The translations under genes were made by a program, and so were the position numbers. Below are positions 3,767 to 20,626 of a stretch of 39,560 nt of DNA, piece by piece (positions within the stretch are counted from its first letter, which is position 1; every line of letters begins with the position of its first letter). The DNA comes from a virus (lineage: Duplodnaviria > Heunggongvirae > Uroviricota > Caudoviricetes), in IMG/VR virus record IMGVR_UViG_2548876940_000011; one strand, 5' to 3'. The notes under the pieces were generated by a model. The model was not told the origin of the DNA and searched no databases. It was given only the letters and a program-made list of their open reading frames with translations.

Positions 3767-4699
3767 ATGACCGATATAAACGATGTAATCAAGACCATTG
3801 ATGAACTTATTGATGGCGGCGTGCTGACGCAGTATGCCATCGCCAGAGAGGCGGGAATTTCCGACGGCACATTATCGGCTTTCCGCAAGGGGAAATATAA
3901 AGGCGATAACGCCGCTGTGGCTGCTTCCCTGCGCTCCTGGTATGAGAACTGGAATAAACAAAGCGCACTGCCGGAACCGCCGCAGTTTGTGGAAACTCAG
4001 ACAGTCCAGGAGCTGCGCGCACTGTTTCAGGCGGTTCGCCTGATGGGCTGTATTAACGTTATTGTGGGCGTACCGGGTGTGGGTAAAACGGCCACTGCCC
4101 GTAATTACTGCCAGGAGCAACCAAACACCTGGATGATCACCCTGTCACCCGCGCACTCCAGCGTCACGGAGTGTCTGCTGGAGCTGGCCGATGCGCTGGG
4201 GATTGATTACACCCGCGCGAACAAAGGGGCATTATCCCGCGCCATCCGCCGTCGCCTGATGGGAACGCGTGGACTGGTGATTGTGGATGAGGCGGATCAT
4301 CTTGGTATTGACGGTCTGGAGCAACTCCGGGCAATTCAGGACGCCACGGGGATCGGGATGGTGCTTATTGGTAACCCGCGCGGATTGTTTAAAGGTGGAC
4401 GCCGCGCCTTTGATGATTTATCGCGCCTGTTCAGCCGTCTTGCCCGTACAAAACAACTTCGCAAGGCCAAAAAGGCGGATGTGCTGGCCATTGCCAGGGC
4501 ATGGGGTATCAGTGGTGAGGCCGAGCTGGCTGTCATGCAGGCTATCGCTGAAAAGCCGGGAGCGTTACGCGTTCTGACACATACGCTTAACCAGGCGTGG
4601 CTCACCGCCAGCGGTGAAGGCGCGGCGCTGACAGAAAAACATATTAATGCGGCCTTTAAAGAGGTTTATACCAACCCTGAATTACTCTCACAGGTGTGA
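3767..4699 (+). CDS. Mu B-type transposition ATPase (AAA+ target DNA activator)
   Basis: 310 aa; Walker A motif GVPGVGKT; Walker B-like VIVDEAD; directly downstream of the transposase. Confidence 0.9.
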   Translation: MTDINDVIKTIDELIDGGVLTQYAIAREAGISDGTLSAFRKGKYKGDNAAVAASLRSWYENWNKQSALPEPPQFVETQTVQELRALFQAVRLMGCINVIVGVPGVGKTATARNYCQEQPNTWMITLSPAHSSVTECLLELADALGIDYTRANKGALSRAIRRRLMGTRGLVIVDEADHLGIDGLEQLRAIQDATGIGMVLIGNPRGLFKGGRRAFDDLSRLFSRLARTKQLRKAKKADVLAIARAWGISGEAELAVMQAIAEKPGALRVLTHTLNQAWLTASGEGAALTEKHINAAFKEVYTNPELLSQV

Positions 4700-15825: not shown

Positions 15826-17414
15826 TGGGACGCATCATTGATACTGACGGAAAACCTTTCTCCTTTGACCCGGAGATGCAGAGTGCCGCGCTGGATATTC
15901 CGCAGATTGCCAGCCGTTATATTGAACATCCGGCTTCGGGTATCACCCCGAACCGGGCGGCGCAGTGCCTTCGCGGGGCTGAACGTGGCGATCTGATTGC
16001 CCAGTCCGATCTGGCCGCTGATATTGAAGAAAAGGACACCCACCTTTTTGCGGAGCTGGGCAAGCGACGTCTTGCCATTCAGGGGGTGCCATGGAGTATT
16101 GAGCCGCCACCGAACGCCAGCGCGAATGAGAAAAAGGACGCGGAAATGCTCGACGAATATCTGCATTCCGCAGACTGGTTTGATGCCATGCTGTTTGACG
16201 CCACGGATGCCATCCTGAAGGGCTATTCCTGCATGGAAATTGAGCACGGGATGCTCGGTAAAATGCACATCATCCGCGCCATCCGCTGGCGTGACAGCGG
16301 GCATTTCTGCCTTAACCCGGATGATTTGAGCGAACTGCGGCTGCGTGACGGCAGCCATTCCGGGGTGGCGTTTCAGCCCTTTGGCTGGATAGTGCATCAG
16401 TCGCGTTCACGCACCGGTTACGGTGGTGCAACCGGGCTTGTCCGGACGCTTATCTGGCCGTTCATTTTCAAAAACTATTCCGTGCGCGATCTGGCGGAAT
16501 TTCTGGAGGTGTACGGCCTGCCGATGAAGGTCGGGAAATACCCGTCCGGGGCAACACCGGAGCAGAAAAGTGCCCTGATGCGGGCGGTGATGGATATCGG
16601 GCGACGTACAGGCGGGATCATCCCGGCCGGGATGTCGCTGGAGTTTCAGGCGGCAGCGAACGGTCAGGCCGATCCGTTTGAAACCATGATTTCGTGGGGG
16701 GAGCGTTCCATCTCCAAAGCAATACTCGGCGGCACGCTGACCACGGAAGCCGGAGACAAAGGCGCGCGCTCACTGGGTGAGGTACATAACGAGGTGCGCC
16801 GGGAAATCAGGGATTCTGATTTACGACAGCTGGCTGCAACCCTGAACCGCGATCTGGTGTATCCGCTGTACGCCCTGAACACCACGCACACTATTGATAT
16901 CCGCCGTCTGCCACGTATCTGCTTCCAGACAAAAGAACCAGGTGATATCACCAAAATCACCAGTGCGGTGATGCAGCTCAGTACGGGGATGGATATTTCT
17001 GATCCCTGGATACGTGAGCAGACCGGTATTCCGCAGCCCACGCCCGGTGAAGCCATATTCCGTGTCCGTCAGAGTGGCAATGAACCGGCTCAGACCGACA
17101 GGGAAACACCACCGGAAAAACAGGAAAAAACAGAGCAGACGGCGCTGTCAGCCAGACTGCCGGAAGCGAAAAGCACGCCGCGTGATGAACTGGATGATAT
17201 GGGGGACGCGGTGCCTGCCCGCCGCTTACAGGAGGCCATCGACCCGGTACTGGAGCCGGTCATTGATGCCATCAGAACGCGGGGGCTGGCGGATGCGCTG
17301 GCAGACCTGCCTGCCCTTTATCGTGAAATGGATGATTCCCGCCTGATGACGCTGCTCAGTGATGCCATGTTTGCTGCGGAAATGAAGGGGATGCTGGATG
17401 ACACAGGGGATTGA
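15825..17414 (+). CDS. Portal protein (Mu gp29/H-like)
   Basis: 529 aa; GTG start overlapping the terminase stop; acidic C-terminus; position between terminase and F. Confidence 0.8.
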   Translation: MGRIIDTDGKPFSFDPEMQSAALDIPQIASRYIEHPASGITPNRAAQCLRGAERGDLIAQSDLAADIEEKDTHLFAELGKRRLAIQGVPWSIEPPPNASANEKKDAEMLDEYLHSADWFDAMLFDATDAILKGYSCMEIEHGMLGKMHIIRAIRWRDSGHFCLNPDDLSELRLRDGSHSGVAFQPFGWIVHQSRSRTGYGGATGLVRTLIWPFIFKNYSVRDLAEFLEVYGLPMKVGKYPSGATPEQKSALMRAVMDIGRRTGGIIPAGMSLEFQAAANGQADPFETMISWGERSISKAILGGTLTTEAGDKGARSLGEVHNEVRREIRDSDLRQLAATLNRDLVYPLYALNTTHTIDIRRLPRICFQTKEPGDITKITSAVMQLSTGMDISDPWIREQTGIPQPTPGEAIFRVRQSGNEPAQTDRETPPEKQEKTEQTALSARLPEAKSTPRDELDDMGDAVPARRLQEAIDPVLEPVIDAIRTRGLADALADLPALYREMDDSRLMTLLSDAMFAAEMKGMLDDTGD

Positions 17415-18729
17415 TTTAGGTTATGCCGCCACGCTTCCCTCAAAAGAGGCGGTAGCATACTTCCGTGTCAAAGGGGCGCATATCAGCTGGAACTGGTTCG
17501 AAACAGCCGCGGATGTTCATGCCCGCTCATTCACGGCAGCAAAAGCGGCACGCCTGGATGTGGTGACCACGTTACAGGCCGAAGTGCAGCGGGCCATTGA
17601 TGAGGGAATTTCACAGAAAGCATTTATCCGCACGCTGACGCCACGCCTGCAAAAGCTGGGATGGTGGGGAAAGCAGATTGTGGTGGACAGCGACGGTAAC
17701 GCGGAAGAAGTGCAACTGGGCAGTCCCCGTCGTCTGGCGCTGATTTACAACGTGAACACCCGGGTGGCTTACAATGCCGGGCGTTACACGCAGATGATGA
17801 ACAACACGGACACGCATCCGTTCTGGCAGTATGTGGCGGTCATGGACAGCCGTACCCGCCCGTCGCATTCCGCCCTTAACGGTCTGGTATTCCGCTATGA
17901 CGATCCGTTCTGGAAAACACACTACCCACCTAATGGCTGGAACTGCCGCTGCCGTGTGCGGCCATTGTCTCAGGCTCGTCTGGATGCAATGGGGTTATCC
18001 GTTTCATCCGGTGAGGATCATCTCTCCACCCGCAATGTTGAGGCTGGCGTGGATAAACAGACCGGAGAAGTCAGAGAAATGCCGGTGACCACATATTCAG
18101 ATGGCACCAGAACCATGACACCGGATGTGGGCTGGTCATATAACCCCGGCTCGGCAGCGTTCGGCACAGACCAGGCGCTGATCCGCAAACTGATCGAGGT
18201 GAAAAGCCCGGCGTTACGGGAAATGGTGGTTCAGGAGATGAACAACAGCCCGGAGCGGCAGCTGGCGTTCCGCATCTGGGCAAAAAACATCATGCAGACC
18301 CAGCGAGGTGGTAACGATATCCGCACGCTGGGCTTTATGACTGAAAGCATTGCGCAGGCAGTGGAAAGCCGGACGGGAACGCCACCGGCCCGCCTGCTGG
18401 CGATGAGCGGTAAAAATGTGCTCCATGCAGACAGTGTGAAACATCAGAATGACGGCATCGCCCTGATGCCAGAGGACTTCGGGCGCTTACCGGCAATGCT
18501 GGCAAAGCCAAAAGCGGTGCTGTGGGACAAACGGCACAAAAATCTGATGTATATCGTGGAAAATAAGGATGGCAGTGTGCAGATTGCCGTTAATGCACCG
18601 TACAGTCTGAAACGTCAGCCCGACAAACTGGATGTGATTGTGAATGCTTACCGAGTTATCAATATGGATAAGCTGAAATCGGATATCCGGGGCGGAATGC
18701 TTGAGGTGCTGGAAGGACAAATTGATTAA
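17398..18729 (+). CDS. Head morphogenesis protein (Mu F-like)
   Basis: 443 aa; conserved block DSRTRPSHSALNGLVFRYDDPFWKTHYPPNGWNCRCR typical of Mu F / SPP1 gp7 family. Confidence 0.85.
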   Translation: MTQGIDLGYAATLPSKEAVAYFRVKGAHISWNWFETAADVHARSFTAAKAARLDVVTTLQAEVQRAIDEGISQKAFIRTLTPRLQKLGWWGKQIVVDSDGNAEEVQLGSPRRLALIYNVNTRVAYNAGRYTQMMNNTDTHPFWQYVAVMDSRTRPSHSALNGLVFRYDDPFWKTHYPPNGWNCRCRVRPLSQARLDAMGLSVSSGEDHLSTRNVEAGVDKQTGEVREMPVTTYSDGTRTMTPDVGWSYNPGSAAFGTDQALIRKLIEVKSPALREMVVQEMNNSPERQLAFRIWAKNIMQTQRGGNDIRTLGFMTESIAQAVESRTGTPPARLLAMSGKNVLHADSVKHQNDGIALMPEDFGRLPAMLAKPKAVLWDKRHKNLMYIVENKDGSVQIAVNAPYSLKRQPDKLDVIVNAYRVINMDKLKSDIRGGMLEVLEGQID

Positions 18730-18850
18730 CGGTCAGTGGCGGGGGTCGAACCCGCATACATGATCCACCCGGAGGCAGGCACCGACTTTACCAGTTAAGC
18801 GTACACTGACCGCCTGTTTATTTTATATTCATCCTTTATGCGGAGGCAAT

Positions 18851-19324
18851 ATGTCATCCATTGATGCCGCTGTCGTTGTTGACGTTACGCGTCTCCAGCG
18901 GGTGTTTGCCCGGCTTCAGTTTGTGGGCGGCGGAAAAGACCTGGCCCGCAGTGTGGCGGAGAGTCTTCTGTCATCGTCAGAAATGGCGTTTGAACAGGAA
19001 AAAGAGCCGGACGGCGAACGCTGGCATGACTGGTCAGATCCTTACCGCAAGTGGCGTACCCGTAAGGGATACACGCCCGGCAAAATCCTGACACTGAACG
19101 GCGATCTGGCCCGCCGCCTGACCACGGATTATGGCGATACCTGGGCGCTGATTGGATCAAATGAACCTTATGCGGCCATTCATCAGTGGGGTGGCCTGCC
19201 TGGTATGCCACCGGGACCGGCGGCCATTGGCGCACGTCCGTATATGGGCTTTGCTCAGGTGGCAGAACAGGAGATCATGGACGAAATCAGAAAACGCTTT
19301 AAAAAGGCCACAGAAACGCCGTAA
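18851..19324 (+). CDS. Virion morphogenesis protein (Mu G-like)
   Basis: 157 aa between F and the protease/scaffold gene; call by position and size. Confidence 0.7.
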   Translation: MSSIDAAVVVDVTRLQRVFARLQFVGGGKDLARSVAESLLSSSEMAFEQEKEPDGERWHDWSDPYRKWRTRKGYTPGKILTLNGDLARRLTTDYGDTWALIGSNEPYAAIHQWGGLPGMPPGPAAIGARPYMGFAQVAEQEIMDEIRKRFKKATETP

Positions 19325-19501
19325 TGGTTTAAGGTATACAAACGCATTGCCTTACCCTCTTCAGGCGCGTGTCGTGATTTTCTAACCTGTATTTAACGGG
19401 CTTTAAAATCTGCGTGAAGCGCCTTTCTCATTTTTCCCCTGTCAGCACTTTCTGAAGTCCCGCAAAACCGGCCCCGAAAAACACCGGCTTATGCTGCCGG
19501 A
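19325..19501 (+). promoter_or_regulatory. G-I intergenic region: probable late promoter for the head operon; candidate central gyrase site
   Basis: 177-bp non-coding gap close to the midpoint of the element; in Mu the equivalent gap carries the I promoter and the strong gyrase site. Confidence 0.3.
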
Positions 19502-20626
19502 ATGAAGACGAAAAACACGCCCAAACTTGCTTATGCCATTCTGAATGCCATCAGCCTGTCCGCAGACGGGGACGGTGACTGGTGTCAGATCATGCCAGCC
19601 GGTCGGGTAAAGGCCCGTGACGGTCGCCCGGAAAAACCGGCGGAAGGCTGGCTGATTAACCATGCGGCCGTTGAGCGTATGGTATCCCGGGTTGTGGCGC
19701 TCAATCAGCCGGTAAAAATTGACTACAACCACCAGACCCTGATTAAGGGGCATCCGGCACCGGCTGCCGGTTTTGTCATGGCCTCACCGGAAAACTTCCG
19801 CTTCAGTGAAGAGCGGGGTTTTGAAGTGCGTCCGGACTGGAACCCTCCGGCCATTGAACACCTGCGCAATAACGAATTTCCCTGGTTTTCCCCGGTGATT
19901 GGTTATGACGAAATCACCGGTGAACCTGTTGAGCTTCGGATGCTGGCTATTACCGGTGACCCCGGTCTGACTGGCATGAATCCTGTCGCCGCACTGTCGG
20001 CGGATGACCTTTATAACGCCTTAAACCCTCCTTTAAAGGACACCTCCATGAATGAGCAATTACGCCAGTTGCTGACGGCGCTCGGTCTGACCGTGGCCGA
20101 CGGTGACGAATTTACACCGGAACTGGGCACGGCGGCGCTGTCTGCCCTTACCGGGATCAAAACCCGTGCGGATGCGCACGACACCCTGAAAACGCAGGTT
20201 GCCAGCCTGTCGGCAGAGCTGGAAACCGCAAAAGGCACACCAACTGGCGGCACTATTGATCTGACGAAATACGTGCCCGTTGAGACGTATAACGCCCTGC
20301 GTACCGAATATGTCGCGTTGTCGGCACAACACGGCAGCACCACGCTGGAGCAGTTGCTGGATAAGGCCGAGTCCGAAGGACGCATTTTCAAAAGCGAACG
20401 CGGATACATGGAAGGACTCGGACAACAGATTGGTGTTGCGGCACTTTCTGCACAGCTTGACGCCCGCCAGCCGGTTGCGGCTCTGACCACTCTTCAGACC
20501 GACACCGTAACCGTGCCGGATAAAAAGACCGCCACCGCTGCGCTGTCGGCTGAAGATATCGCCGCCGCCCATCTGCTGGGTAAAACCGAAGCCGAGTTCC
20601 TGAAAATGAAAGAGGAAATGCAATAA
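19502..20626 (+). CDS. Head protease / scaffold (Mu I-like)
   Basis: 374 aa immediately upstream of the major capsid gene; Ala/Thr-rich C-terminal half. Confidence 0.8.
   Translation: MKTKNTPKLAYAILNAISLSADGDGDWCQIMPAGRVKARDGRPEKPAEGWLINHAAVERMVSRVVALNQPVKIDYNHQTLIKGHPAPAAGFVMASPENFRFSEERGFEVRPDWNPPAIEHLRNNEFPWFSPVIGYDEITGEPVELRMLAITGDPGLTGMNPVAALSADDLYNALNPPLKDTSMNEQLRQLLTALGLTVADGDEFTPELGTAALSALTGIKTRADAHDTLKTQVASLSAELETAKGTPTGGTIDLTKYVPVETYNALRTEYVALSAQHGSTTLEQLLDKAESEGRIFKSERGYMEGLGQQIGVAALSAQLDARQPVAALTTLQTDTVTVPDKKTATAALSAEDIAAAHLLGKTEAEFLKMKEEMQ

Follow-up and report, generated by a model that had tools for sequence, protein, structure and literature searches.

A tRNA-shaped, non-decoding RNA gene linked to the RNase-type domain of head protein F in Mu-like phages

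Here we describe a small RNA gene in a 39,560-nucleotide (nt) stretch of Caudoviricetes DNA (IMG/VR record IMGVR_UViG_2548876940_000011). The whole stretch, referred to below as the window, is a complete Mu-like prophage of Escherichia coli that is integrated within a fimbrial usher gene. The RNA gene is antisense to the late messenger RNA (mRNA) of the head genes F and G and is placed directly after the F stop codon. Its product has the shape of a transfer RNA (tRNA) with a sealed anticodon arm, and comparison with its relatives identifies it as a selected, non-decoding RNA gene and not a remnant. Our main finding, which is absent from a preliminary description of the locus, is a link between this RNA and the predicted ribonuclease (RNase) domain at the C terminus of F. 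We tentatively propose, at somewhat under even chances, that it is a tRNA-derived immunity RNA for a virion-delivered MuF-C RNase, forming a widespread Mu-like cassette that is swapped as a unit and is also represented by orphan arrays on islands.

An RNA gene in the F–G slot

The features of the locus are listed in Table 1. The family model (R1) scores 86 bits at the RNA gene, which is the sole copy in the window. The spacer between F and G (the F–G slot) holds only mechanical open reading frames (ORFs) of 20–32 amino acids, none of which is credible, and the lengths of the RNA arms among relatives vary by non-multiples of three.

Table 1 Features of the RNA gene and its surroundings (positions in the window)
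Feature	Position	Strand	Remarks
Gene F	17398..18729	+	Mu gp30 family, 443 amino acids; Phage_Mu_F residues 58-187, MuF-C residues 347-429
H343-A-D-S346-V-K-H349 codons of F	18424..18444	+	Kept only in F proteins with an adjacent RNA gene
Exchangeable cassette	18500..18860		Last ~77 codons of F, RNA gene and promoter; identity drop versus L147
N416 codon of F (I/V-N-A-Y-R strand)	18643..18645	+	Second residue lost along with the RNA gene
tRNA-shaped non-decoding RNA gene	18730..18812	-	Closing helix to closing helix
Closing helix, 3′ strand	18730..18738	-	Ends one base from the F stop codon
Rfam and RefSeq core of the RNA gene	18731-18810	-	RF00005 match, RefSeq tRNA-OTHER
T arm	18739..18755	-	GCGGG-UUCGACC-CCCGC
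Arm at the anticodon-arm position	18760..18782	-	3-base-pair base, internal loop, 5-base-pair stem, tetraloop UCCG
D arm	18785..18800	-	Stem GCUU/AAGU, loop AACUGGUA, invariant GG
Closing helix, 5′ strand	18804..18812	-	Pairs with 18730-18738, 9 base pairs (tRNA: 7)
Sigma-70-like promoter of the RNA gene	18820..18849	-	Consensus scan
Shine–Dalgarno sequence of G	18842-18846	+	Upstream of G
Gene G	18851..19324	+	Virion morphogenesis or neck protein; downstream border of the F–G slot

A cloverleaf with a sealed anticodon arm

On the minus strand, the RNA runs from the closing helix through U-A-C, a D arm, a hairpin and a short variable stretch to a T arm and the 3′ strand of the helix. It keeps the arm order of the tRNA cloverleaf, with D before T and both ends inside an acceptor-type helix. 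It also shares with canonical tRNA (RF00005) the equivalents of U8-A9, the D-loop GG (equivalents of G18-G19 in the Rfam alignment), the T loop UUCGA, a short variable region and a 5-base-pair (bp) T stem stacked on the acceptor-type helix. Unlike a tRNA, its folds contain no 7-nt anticodon loop with U33 and an anticodon; the arm at this position is an extended hairpin composed of G·U, U-A and G-C pairs, an internal loop and CUGCC-UCCG-GGUGG, in which the tetraloop UCCG occupies 18773-18770. The acceptor end differs as well: the closing helix, a perfect 9-nt inverted repeat in the window, has 8–9 or more bp with positions −1:73 and −2:74 paired, and no CCA is encoded after it in the window sequence. 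As the anticodon loop is sealed in a stable hairpin, the RNA cannot decode, and with a closing helix of 9–12 bp and a missing CCA, tRNA-type maturation of the ends cannot be assumed.

The preliminary description had recognized part of this architecture. It paired GGTCAGTG (18731-18738) with CACTGACC (18804-18811), both of which are present, although the repeat is actually 9 nt long; it read a tRNA-like T arm on the minus strand (GCGGG-TTCGACC-CCCGC, 18755-18739), as we do; and it noted an acceptor stem with an extra 5′ G, which corresponds to the −1:73 pair. Its verdict that this is not a canonical tRNA agrees with the absent anticodon loop and the different acceptor end. Its statement that no convincing D or anticodon arm could be folded is correct for a canonical anticodon arm only, as a D arm exists at 18800-18785. 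Taken singly, the window sequence is not convincing as a structured RNA (fold z-scores of −1.67 for the minus strand and −1.04 for the plus strand, neither significant), and the case rests on comparison.

Default tRNA and Rfam scans overlook the entire RNA family. ARAGORN reported no tRNA in the window or in any family locus, and Rfam searches with default filters, including those of the whole window, returned no match to the element. Only with lax filters on the 351-nt region 18600-18950 was RF00005 matched, at 31.0 bits (gathering score of 29, E = 9.4e-5) and in an alignment that skips 24 nt at the anticodon arm. A covariance-model scan, which the preliminary description had proposed as a check, would thus give a false negative at default settings, and with lax filters its score lies just above the threshold. 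In one search against RF00005, relatives scored 26.4–31 bits and genuine phage tRNAs 42–68 bits. Rfam scans of the window gave no match to tmRNA (transfer-messenger RNA) or YrlA/Y-RNA family models, and a sensitive scan of 18600-18950 gave none to the C4 family at E values up to 10. When 87 nt were compared by BLAST with isolated phage genomes, the only matches were two Stx phages with an inserted Mu-like phage and T-arm-only matches to tRNA-Met. The existence of the element is already known from RefSeq, which labels identical copies tRNA-OTHER on the same strand; it was found in 174 of 5426 complete E. coli genomes, O157:H7 strains among them.

Covariation and conservation

About 46 distinct relatives were gathered from public viral and metagenome contigs, which were scanned with sequence patterns and with protein anchors. 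The 46-sequence alignment was fitted to a model holding 16 core pairs, so the counts for core pairs lean towards structure. Paired cells make up 87% in the homologues and 69% after shuffling. The homologues reach a covariation score of 0.529; shuffling gives 0.194 (none of 500 shuffles as high) and slid partners give 0.12–0.18. The 8-bp closing helix is 95% paired and includes six covarying pairs; the D stem is 100% paired and all three of its inner pairs covary; and the T stem, at 99% paired, shows G-C pairs replaced by A-U and C-G pairs by U-A. The −1:73 position is paired in 40 of the 46 homologues, using 5 pair types. The −2:74 pair, present in 36 of the 46, also has five pair types, although extension pairs are outside the model. 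The GG and UUCGA motifs are invariant or nearly so across alignments in which the D and T stems both covary, and RNAalifold recovered the same helices independently from a MAFFT alignment.

The arm at the anticodon position is highly variable in sequence and length and is always a hairpin. In relatives it is often capped by UUCG, UCCG, GUAA or GCAA; other caps and longer hairpins also occur. We considered and rejected a histidine identity (G-1:C73): the pair is present in most copies in the F–G slot but varies across the family (G-C in 17, A-U in 11 and U-A in 8), which marks it as a structural pair rather than an identity element. A G3:U70 pair is absent.

Within E. coli, the 80 nt are invariant save for a change from UUCGA to UUCAA in one lineage, and both flanks vary. 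The RNA is also 96–97% identical to that of phages whose F and G DNA is 67–70% identical to that of the window. The preliminary description had left three options open, of which a structured RNA is correct. A tRNA remnant would not be expected to show covariation in all arms across phages whose flanking genes are only 41–70% identical, nor near-invariance in E. coli beside varying flanks. The strong covariation in about 46 homologues, together with the conserved promoter of stand-alone copies described below, establishes a selected RNA gene.

Promoter and strand

The promoter of the RNA gene consists of a −35 hexamer TTGCCT (18849-18844), an 18-nt spacer and a −10 hexamer TAAAAT (18825-18820). 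Here the −35 hexamer overlaps the Shine–Dalgarno (SD) sequence of G on the opposite strand. The same hexamers and spacing recur, with different spacer sequences, in stand-alone copies and where a tandem array begins, and the −10 hexamer ends 7–9 nt before the closing helix. The predicted RNA start, at about 18813-18811 in the window, therefore coincides with the first paired bases. Internal copies of arrays are without a promoter, and the divergent stand-alone copies L063 and L074 show no clear hexamers. Strand assignment relies on the loop motifs and the promoter. A comparison of G-U with A-C cells (20 versus 6) is weakly informative, and fold energies are similar for both strands. The remaining option of the preliminary description, a processing signal of the F–G mRNA, is not supported: the tRNA-like strand runs antisense to this mRNA and is preceded by a conserved promoter of its own.

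No terminator was found between the RNA and F in the window. In loci L006, L024, L111 and L207 (Leminorella-type and others), an intrinsic terminator follows the RNA and precedes the F coding sequence.

Several short repeats touch the RNA gene. The 8-mer CGGAGGCA occurs twice on the plus strand (18770-18777 and 18841-18848), and the hairpin arm of the RNA (UGCCUCCG) is complementary over 8 nt to the SD region of G; this complementarity is not conserved in relatives and is thus probably due to chance. A 13-nt inverted repeat with 85% complementarity (18752-18764 with 18831-18843) links the T-stem and variable region of the RNA to the stretch just before the SD of G, and on the plus-strand late mRNA it could form a structure near the ribosome-binding site of G. 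The variable arm was also considered as an antisense determinant and rejected, as it gave only chance 10–11-mers in its own phage or island.

The RNA occurs with an intact motif of the predicted RNase domain of F

The F protein of the window matches PF04233 (Phage_Mu_F) at 104 bits and PF18819 (MuF_C) at 28.3 bits. MuF-C is a predicted phage BECR-fold RNase domain (PBECR) related to colicins D and E5; the domain of Mu gp30 is catalytically inactive, orthologues appear to be catalytically active, and characterized BECR RNases and toxins often cut tRNA or ribosomal RNA (Iyer et al. 2017, PMC5512222). The same study describes F as a head protein that is thought to be injected and predicts an RNA-binding role even for the inactive Mu domain (PMC5512222). 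A search of the PDB with the F C-terminal profile found no sequence relative, only a spurious NHL-repeat match.

Residues H343, S346, H349 and N416 are present in all 21 aligned F proteins that have an adjacent RNA, and the alignment of F C termini shows them to be missing in the RNA-less phage Mu and in locus L062. We then scored 80 Mu-like loci, fetched through N-terminal F motifs regardless of the RNA, for an R1 match and for H-x-x-S-x-x-H plus Asn. Both were present in 52 loci and neither in 25; none had the RNA without the motif, and 3 (L205, L210 and L212) had the motif without an R1 match. In these three and in L207, which keeps H..S..H and Asn but missed the second pattern and was hence scored as having neither, the F–G spacers are 101–586 nt long and contain an antisense structured RNA with its own −10 element. 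The RNAs of L212 and L207 are divergent and tRNA-like. Two environmental Mu-like contigs, L205 (about 3829-3960) and L210 (about 3829-3950), carry on the minus strand a different, conserved RNA with a four-way junction, which has a shared core (ACCGCUGGAAAUUAGACGGCGAGCCAG...GGUGAUGGUGGACAGCCGGCCACC), a covarying closing helix, its own −10 element and no UUCGA T loop; this may be a second family with the same role. With these loci corrected, an antisense structured RNA occupies the slot after all 56 motif-intact F genes and is missing after all 24 motif-less ones. The distance from F to G is −14 to +18 nt in 23 of the 24 RNA-less loci, the exception being L200 (291 nt).

A neighbour-joining tree of F, built from its N-terminal 318 residues, requires at least ten changes with ‘present’ at the root, and the RNA has therefore been lost at least ten times independently. 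In close pairs these losses strike the F motif. Locus L203, without the RNA, has 84% C-terminal identity to L194, which has it, and shows HADSQKH changed to DASSPTS; L180 (66% identical to the RNA-bearing L175) has H to Q and N to T; and L200 (77% identical to the RNA-bearing L185) has H to D and N to S. As the RNA is kept only where the predicted RNase domain of F is intact, its most likely role is that of an antidote to this RNase or a partner for it.

The two are also exchanged together. The window and locus L147 are mostly more than 90% identical over 16400-18500 and 18860-20300 (a few 60-nt windows fall to 83%) but only 62–72% identical over 18500-18860. A low-identity block bounded by near-identical flanks indicates that the F C terminus and the RNA were exchanged as one cassette.

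Distribution in phages and islands

The chief location of the family is the antisense F–G slot of Mu-like phages whose F is 41–67% identical to that of the window; one carrier is the isolated Pasteurella phage Pmp9. Phage Mu has no RNA, and its gp30 (F) and G genes overlap by 4 nt, which leaves no room for one. The RNA is absent from D108 and SfMu, where tblastn shows the same arrangement as in Mu, and from Shewanella phage MuM16-1 and Pseudomonas phages VW-6B and Komp_PAO1_1. In MuM16-1 (L131 4416-4727), which lacks both the RNA and the F motif, G is soon followed by a gene for an RNA-directed DNA polymerase and a regulator. In Rhizobium phage RR1-B (L136 1999-2101), F is longer (486 amino acids) with an unrelated C terminus, and the 103-nt spacer after it contains GC-rich hairpins and gives no match to the family model; these hairpins may be the partner of another C-terminal domain, or simply terminators.

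Outside the F–G slot, two or three different tandem copies of the RNA terminate an integrative island of about 8 kilobases (kb) (L097 33646-41643, from E. coli STEC17-183, NZ_CP075652.1; also L080, L087 and L089). The island encodes an integrase, AlpA, Ash, Icd-like proteins, DUF4222, a RepA helicase, SSB, PerC and a Mor-family activator, and is inserted in mdtP or, in other contigs, next to yicG/ligB. No MuF or PBECR gene was found on this satellite-like island. The Mor gene suggests that the island may exploit Mu-like helper phages. One island copy is called tRNA-Tyr by RefSeq because its 6-nt loop reads UGUACA.

An environmental contig (L070 4561-4634, 6354-6433) has a family member and, 1.7 kb away, a genuine tRNA-Gly(CCC). 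The genes around this family member do not form a Mu-like head module; they are an antitoxin-like gene and genes for an M50 peptidase and a FIST protein. Large metagenomic phage contigs (L012, L015, notably at 2487-2565, and L027) share the T-arm sequence and have tRNA clusters with unusually long tRNA-Ile(UAU) genes of 78–93 nt and, in one case, a four-base anticodon (tgtt) called by ARAGORN. L027 also has YrlA-like (27.6 bits) and tmRNA-like (18.4 bits) matches, both far under the thresholds.

Two further features lie away from the RNA gene. A 177-nt gap (19325-19501) separates G from the protease gene I, and its equivalent in phage Mu contains an annotated gyrase cut site (NC_000929 17879-17880). 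Between the prophage invertase and the com/mom region is a group of accessory cargo genes, comprising a gene for a 684-amino-acid DUF6645 protein and several small DUF genes (L093 35779-37833, about 35497-37551 in the window).

Interpretation

We propose, as a working interpretation in which our confidence falls a little short of even, that the tRNA-shaped RNA with its sealed anticodon is an uncleavable tRNA mimic and the immunity partner of the MuF-C RNase of F. A sigma-70-type promoter belonging to the RNA gene would drive its transcription against the direction of the late operon; a promoter of this constitutive type would have the RNA made in the lysogen and in early infection, before F. 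It would then bind the F RNase as a look-alike of the tRNA substrate in which the cleavage site is sealed, and so might keep the RNase harmless in the phage-making or lysogenic cell, a protection comparable to that given by the immunity proteins of the tRNA-cleaving RNases (tRNases) colicins D and E5. The arrays of two or three RNAs on islands would be orphan immunity genes. Some open-loop variants (UGUA in the island copies) presumably resemble tRNAs with GUN anticodons, a tentative lead towards the kind of tRNA targeted. A hallmark of MuF toxin–immunity modules, a downstream partner that is needed only if the effector is active, is seen here in the joint retention and loss of motif and RNA.

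Several points weigh against this proposal. RNA production, RNase activity of F and binding between the two are predictions. The MuF_C match barely exceeds its cut-off of 27.6 bits. The AlphaFold model of F residues 319-443, a helix followed by four strands, has a pLDDT (predicted local distance difference test) score of 69.6, and a Foldseek search with the model of the F C terminus gave no significant match, the best RNase-like one being MqsR (E = 1.3). Strict tRNA mimicry may not be required, given that the RNA of L205 and L210 has no UUCGA T loop, and the long closing helix without an encoded CCA is unlike the end of a real tRNA. The link between RNA type and the C-terminal helix of F could reflect mere physical closeness. 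Finally, co-loss is equally compatible with a cofactor, cargo or substrate RNA.

The last point introduces the alternative that we take most seriously, although we think it unlikely: that the RNA serves the F RNase as a cofactor, guide, cargo or dedicated substrate and does not inhibit it, for example by being bound by MuF-C and packaged with F for delivery, or by directing or activating the RNase. Co-occurrence, co-loss and cassette exchange would all be expected here too, and a head protein thought to be injected, with RNA binding predicted even for the inactive domain of Mu (PMC5512222), would suit such a cargo. However, orphan arrays on islands without a MuF or PBECR gene fit immunity better, the sealed and highly stable arm looks built against cutting, and a promoter of constitutive rather than late type would have the RNA precede F. 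Antisense control in the manner of type I systems is distinctly improbable. Transcription into the 3′ end of F would lower leaky F expression, and the fold would merely stabilize the 5′ end of the antisense transcript; the promoter does face F, with no terminator between them in the window, and co-loss with the toxin motif would be equally expected. Such control is difficult to reconcile with the terminators that precede the F coding sequence in L006, L024, L111 and L207, with satellite arrays that are antisense to nothing, and with the conserved tRNA elbow and four covarying helices, which a 5′ cap would not need; the target search with the variable arm gave chance matches only.

A role independent of F, as a general decoy or sponge for host or rival factors that target tRNAs (anticodon nucleases, acceptor-end toxins or processing enzymes), seems very unlikely to us, although phages are known to overcome tRNA-cleaving defences with tRNAs whose anticodon stem-loop is altered (PMC11455837) and the RNA also occurs on satellite-like islands and beside tRNA-Gly in an environmental contig. 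It leaves the all-or-none link to the F motif, the fixed position after F and the joint exchange as a cassette unexplained, and an unlinked ‘moron’ decoy was dropped as the main explanation after the link to the F motif emerged. Least probable of all, and in our view barely tenable, is a decaying, functionless phage tRNA gene or a plus-strand mRNA structure or processing signal between F and G. The borderline Rfam score, the negative ARAGORN result, a complementary strand that folds about as stably (with G-U exceeding A-C only by 20 to 6) and the imperfect inverted repeat that ties the element to the region before the SD of G would agree with it. Against these stand the strong covariation and near-invariance, the stable tetraloop caps preserved on the variable arm, the tRNA consensus loops and promoter found on the minus strand only, and the retention of the RNA down to about 41% F identity, with loss only together with the F motif.

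Comparison with known systems

In its proposed function, the RNA comes closest to the immunity half of a MuF cassette or to a type III antitoxin. Genes for MuF polymorphic toxins of temperate phages have a small immunity ORF immediately downstream in 89% of cases (Jamet et al. 2017, PMC5576092). As in these MuF toxin and PBECR modules (PMC5576092; PMC5512222), a toxin-type domain lies at the C terminus of a MuF head protein, the partner is immediately downstream, the cassette is exchanged, the partner is lost when the domain is inactive and orphan partner copies exist. The described partners are small proteins, whereas the partner here would be an RNA, encoded on the opposite strand and transcribed from a promoter of its own.

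The proposal also shares features with the colicins in the fold class suggested for MuF-C and in a tRNA substrate. Colicins D and E5 are BECR-fold tRNA anticodon nucleases, and their immunity proteins occupy the substrate site, resembling the anticodon arm of a tRNA. There a protein imitates RNA; here, by contrast, an RNA derived from a tRNA would be the inhibitor. In type III toxin–antitoxin systems (ToxIN), an RNA directly neutralizes the adjacent endoribonuclease and is made of tandem units, as are the satellite arrays. Type III antitoxins are short pseudoknot repeats, which their own toxin excises and which are encoded upstream of it in the same orientation. The present RNA is set apart by its architecture, since it forms one cloverleaf and is encoded downstream of a virion protein on the opposite strand, and the type III toxin has a different fold and stands outside any virion protein.

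Other small RNAs are less close. The C4 RNAs of P1 and P7 and the CI RNA of P4 are likewise small phage or satellite RNAs with an acceptor-like helix and are handled by tRNA-processing enzymes (RNase P), but they have no T-loop equivalent (PMC5499578) and act through antisense pairing of their loops; the present RNA has a T loop, and the search with its arm yielded no target. The tRNA-Lys of phage T5, which acts against PARIS (PMC11455837), is also a phage-borne tRNA relative that has a changed anticodon stem-loop and is left uncut; it is, however, a functional tRNA that restores translation, whereas the present RNA cannot decode. In contrast to t-elements and mascRNA-type processing signals, the tRNA-like fold is here antisense to the F–G late mRNA, and unlike YrlA, which has a permuted arm order with a Ro-binding stem, it keeps the arm order of tRNA.

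Implications

Full-text literature searches turned up no account of this RNA family, of how it is conserved or of its connection to the predicted RNase domain of F. If our proposal is correct, the RNA would be an immunity factor made of RNA for an effector of the polymorphic-toxin type, of which these searches gave no case, and a natural RNA that imitates tRNA to block a tRNase. It would explain one recurrent tRNA-OTHER call of RefSeq in E. coli. For the Mu family, it would give the poorly understood C terminus of F a testable role, that of an active RNase carried in the virion, and would account for the absence of the RNA from classical Mu, in which the domain is inactive. Prophages and satellite-like islands that carry the RNA could, in that case, confer cross-immunity against the RNases of incoming phages.

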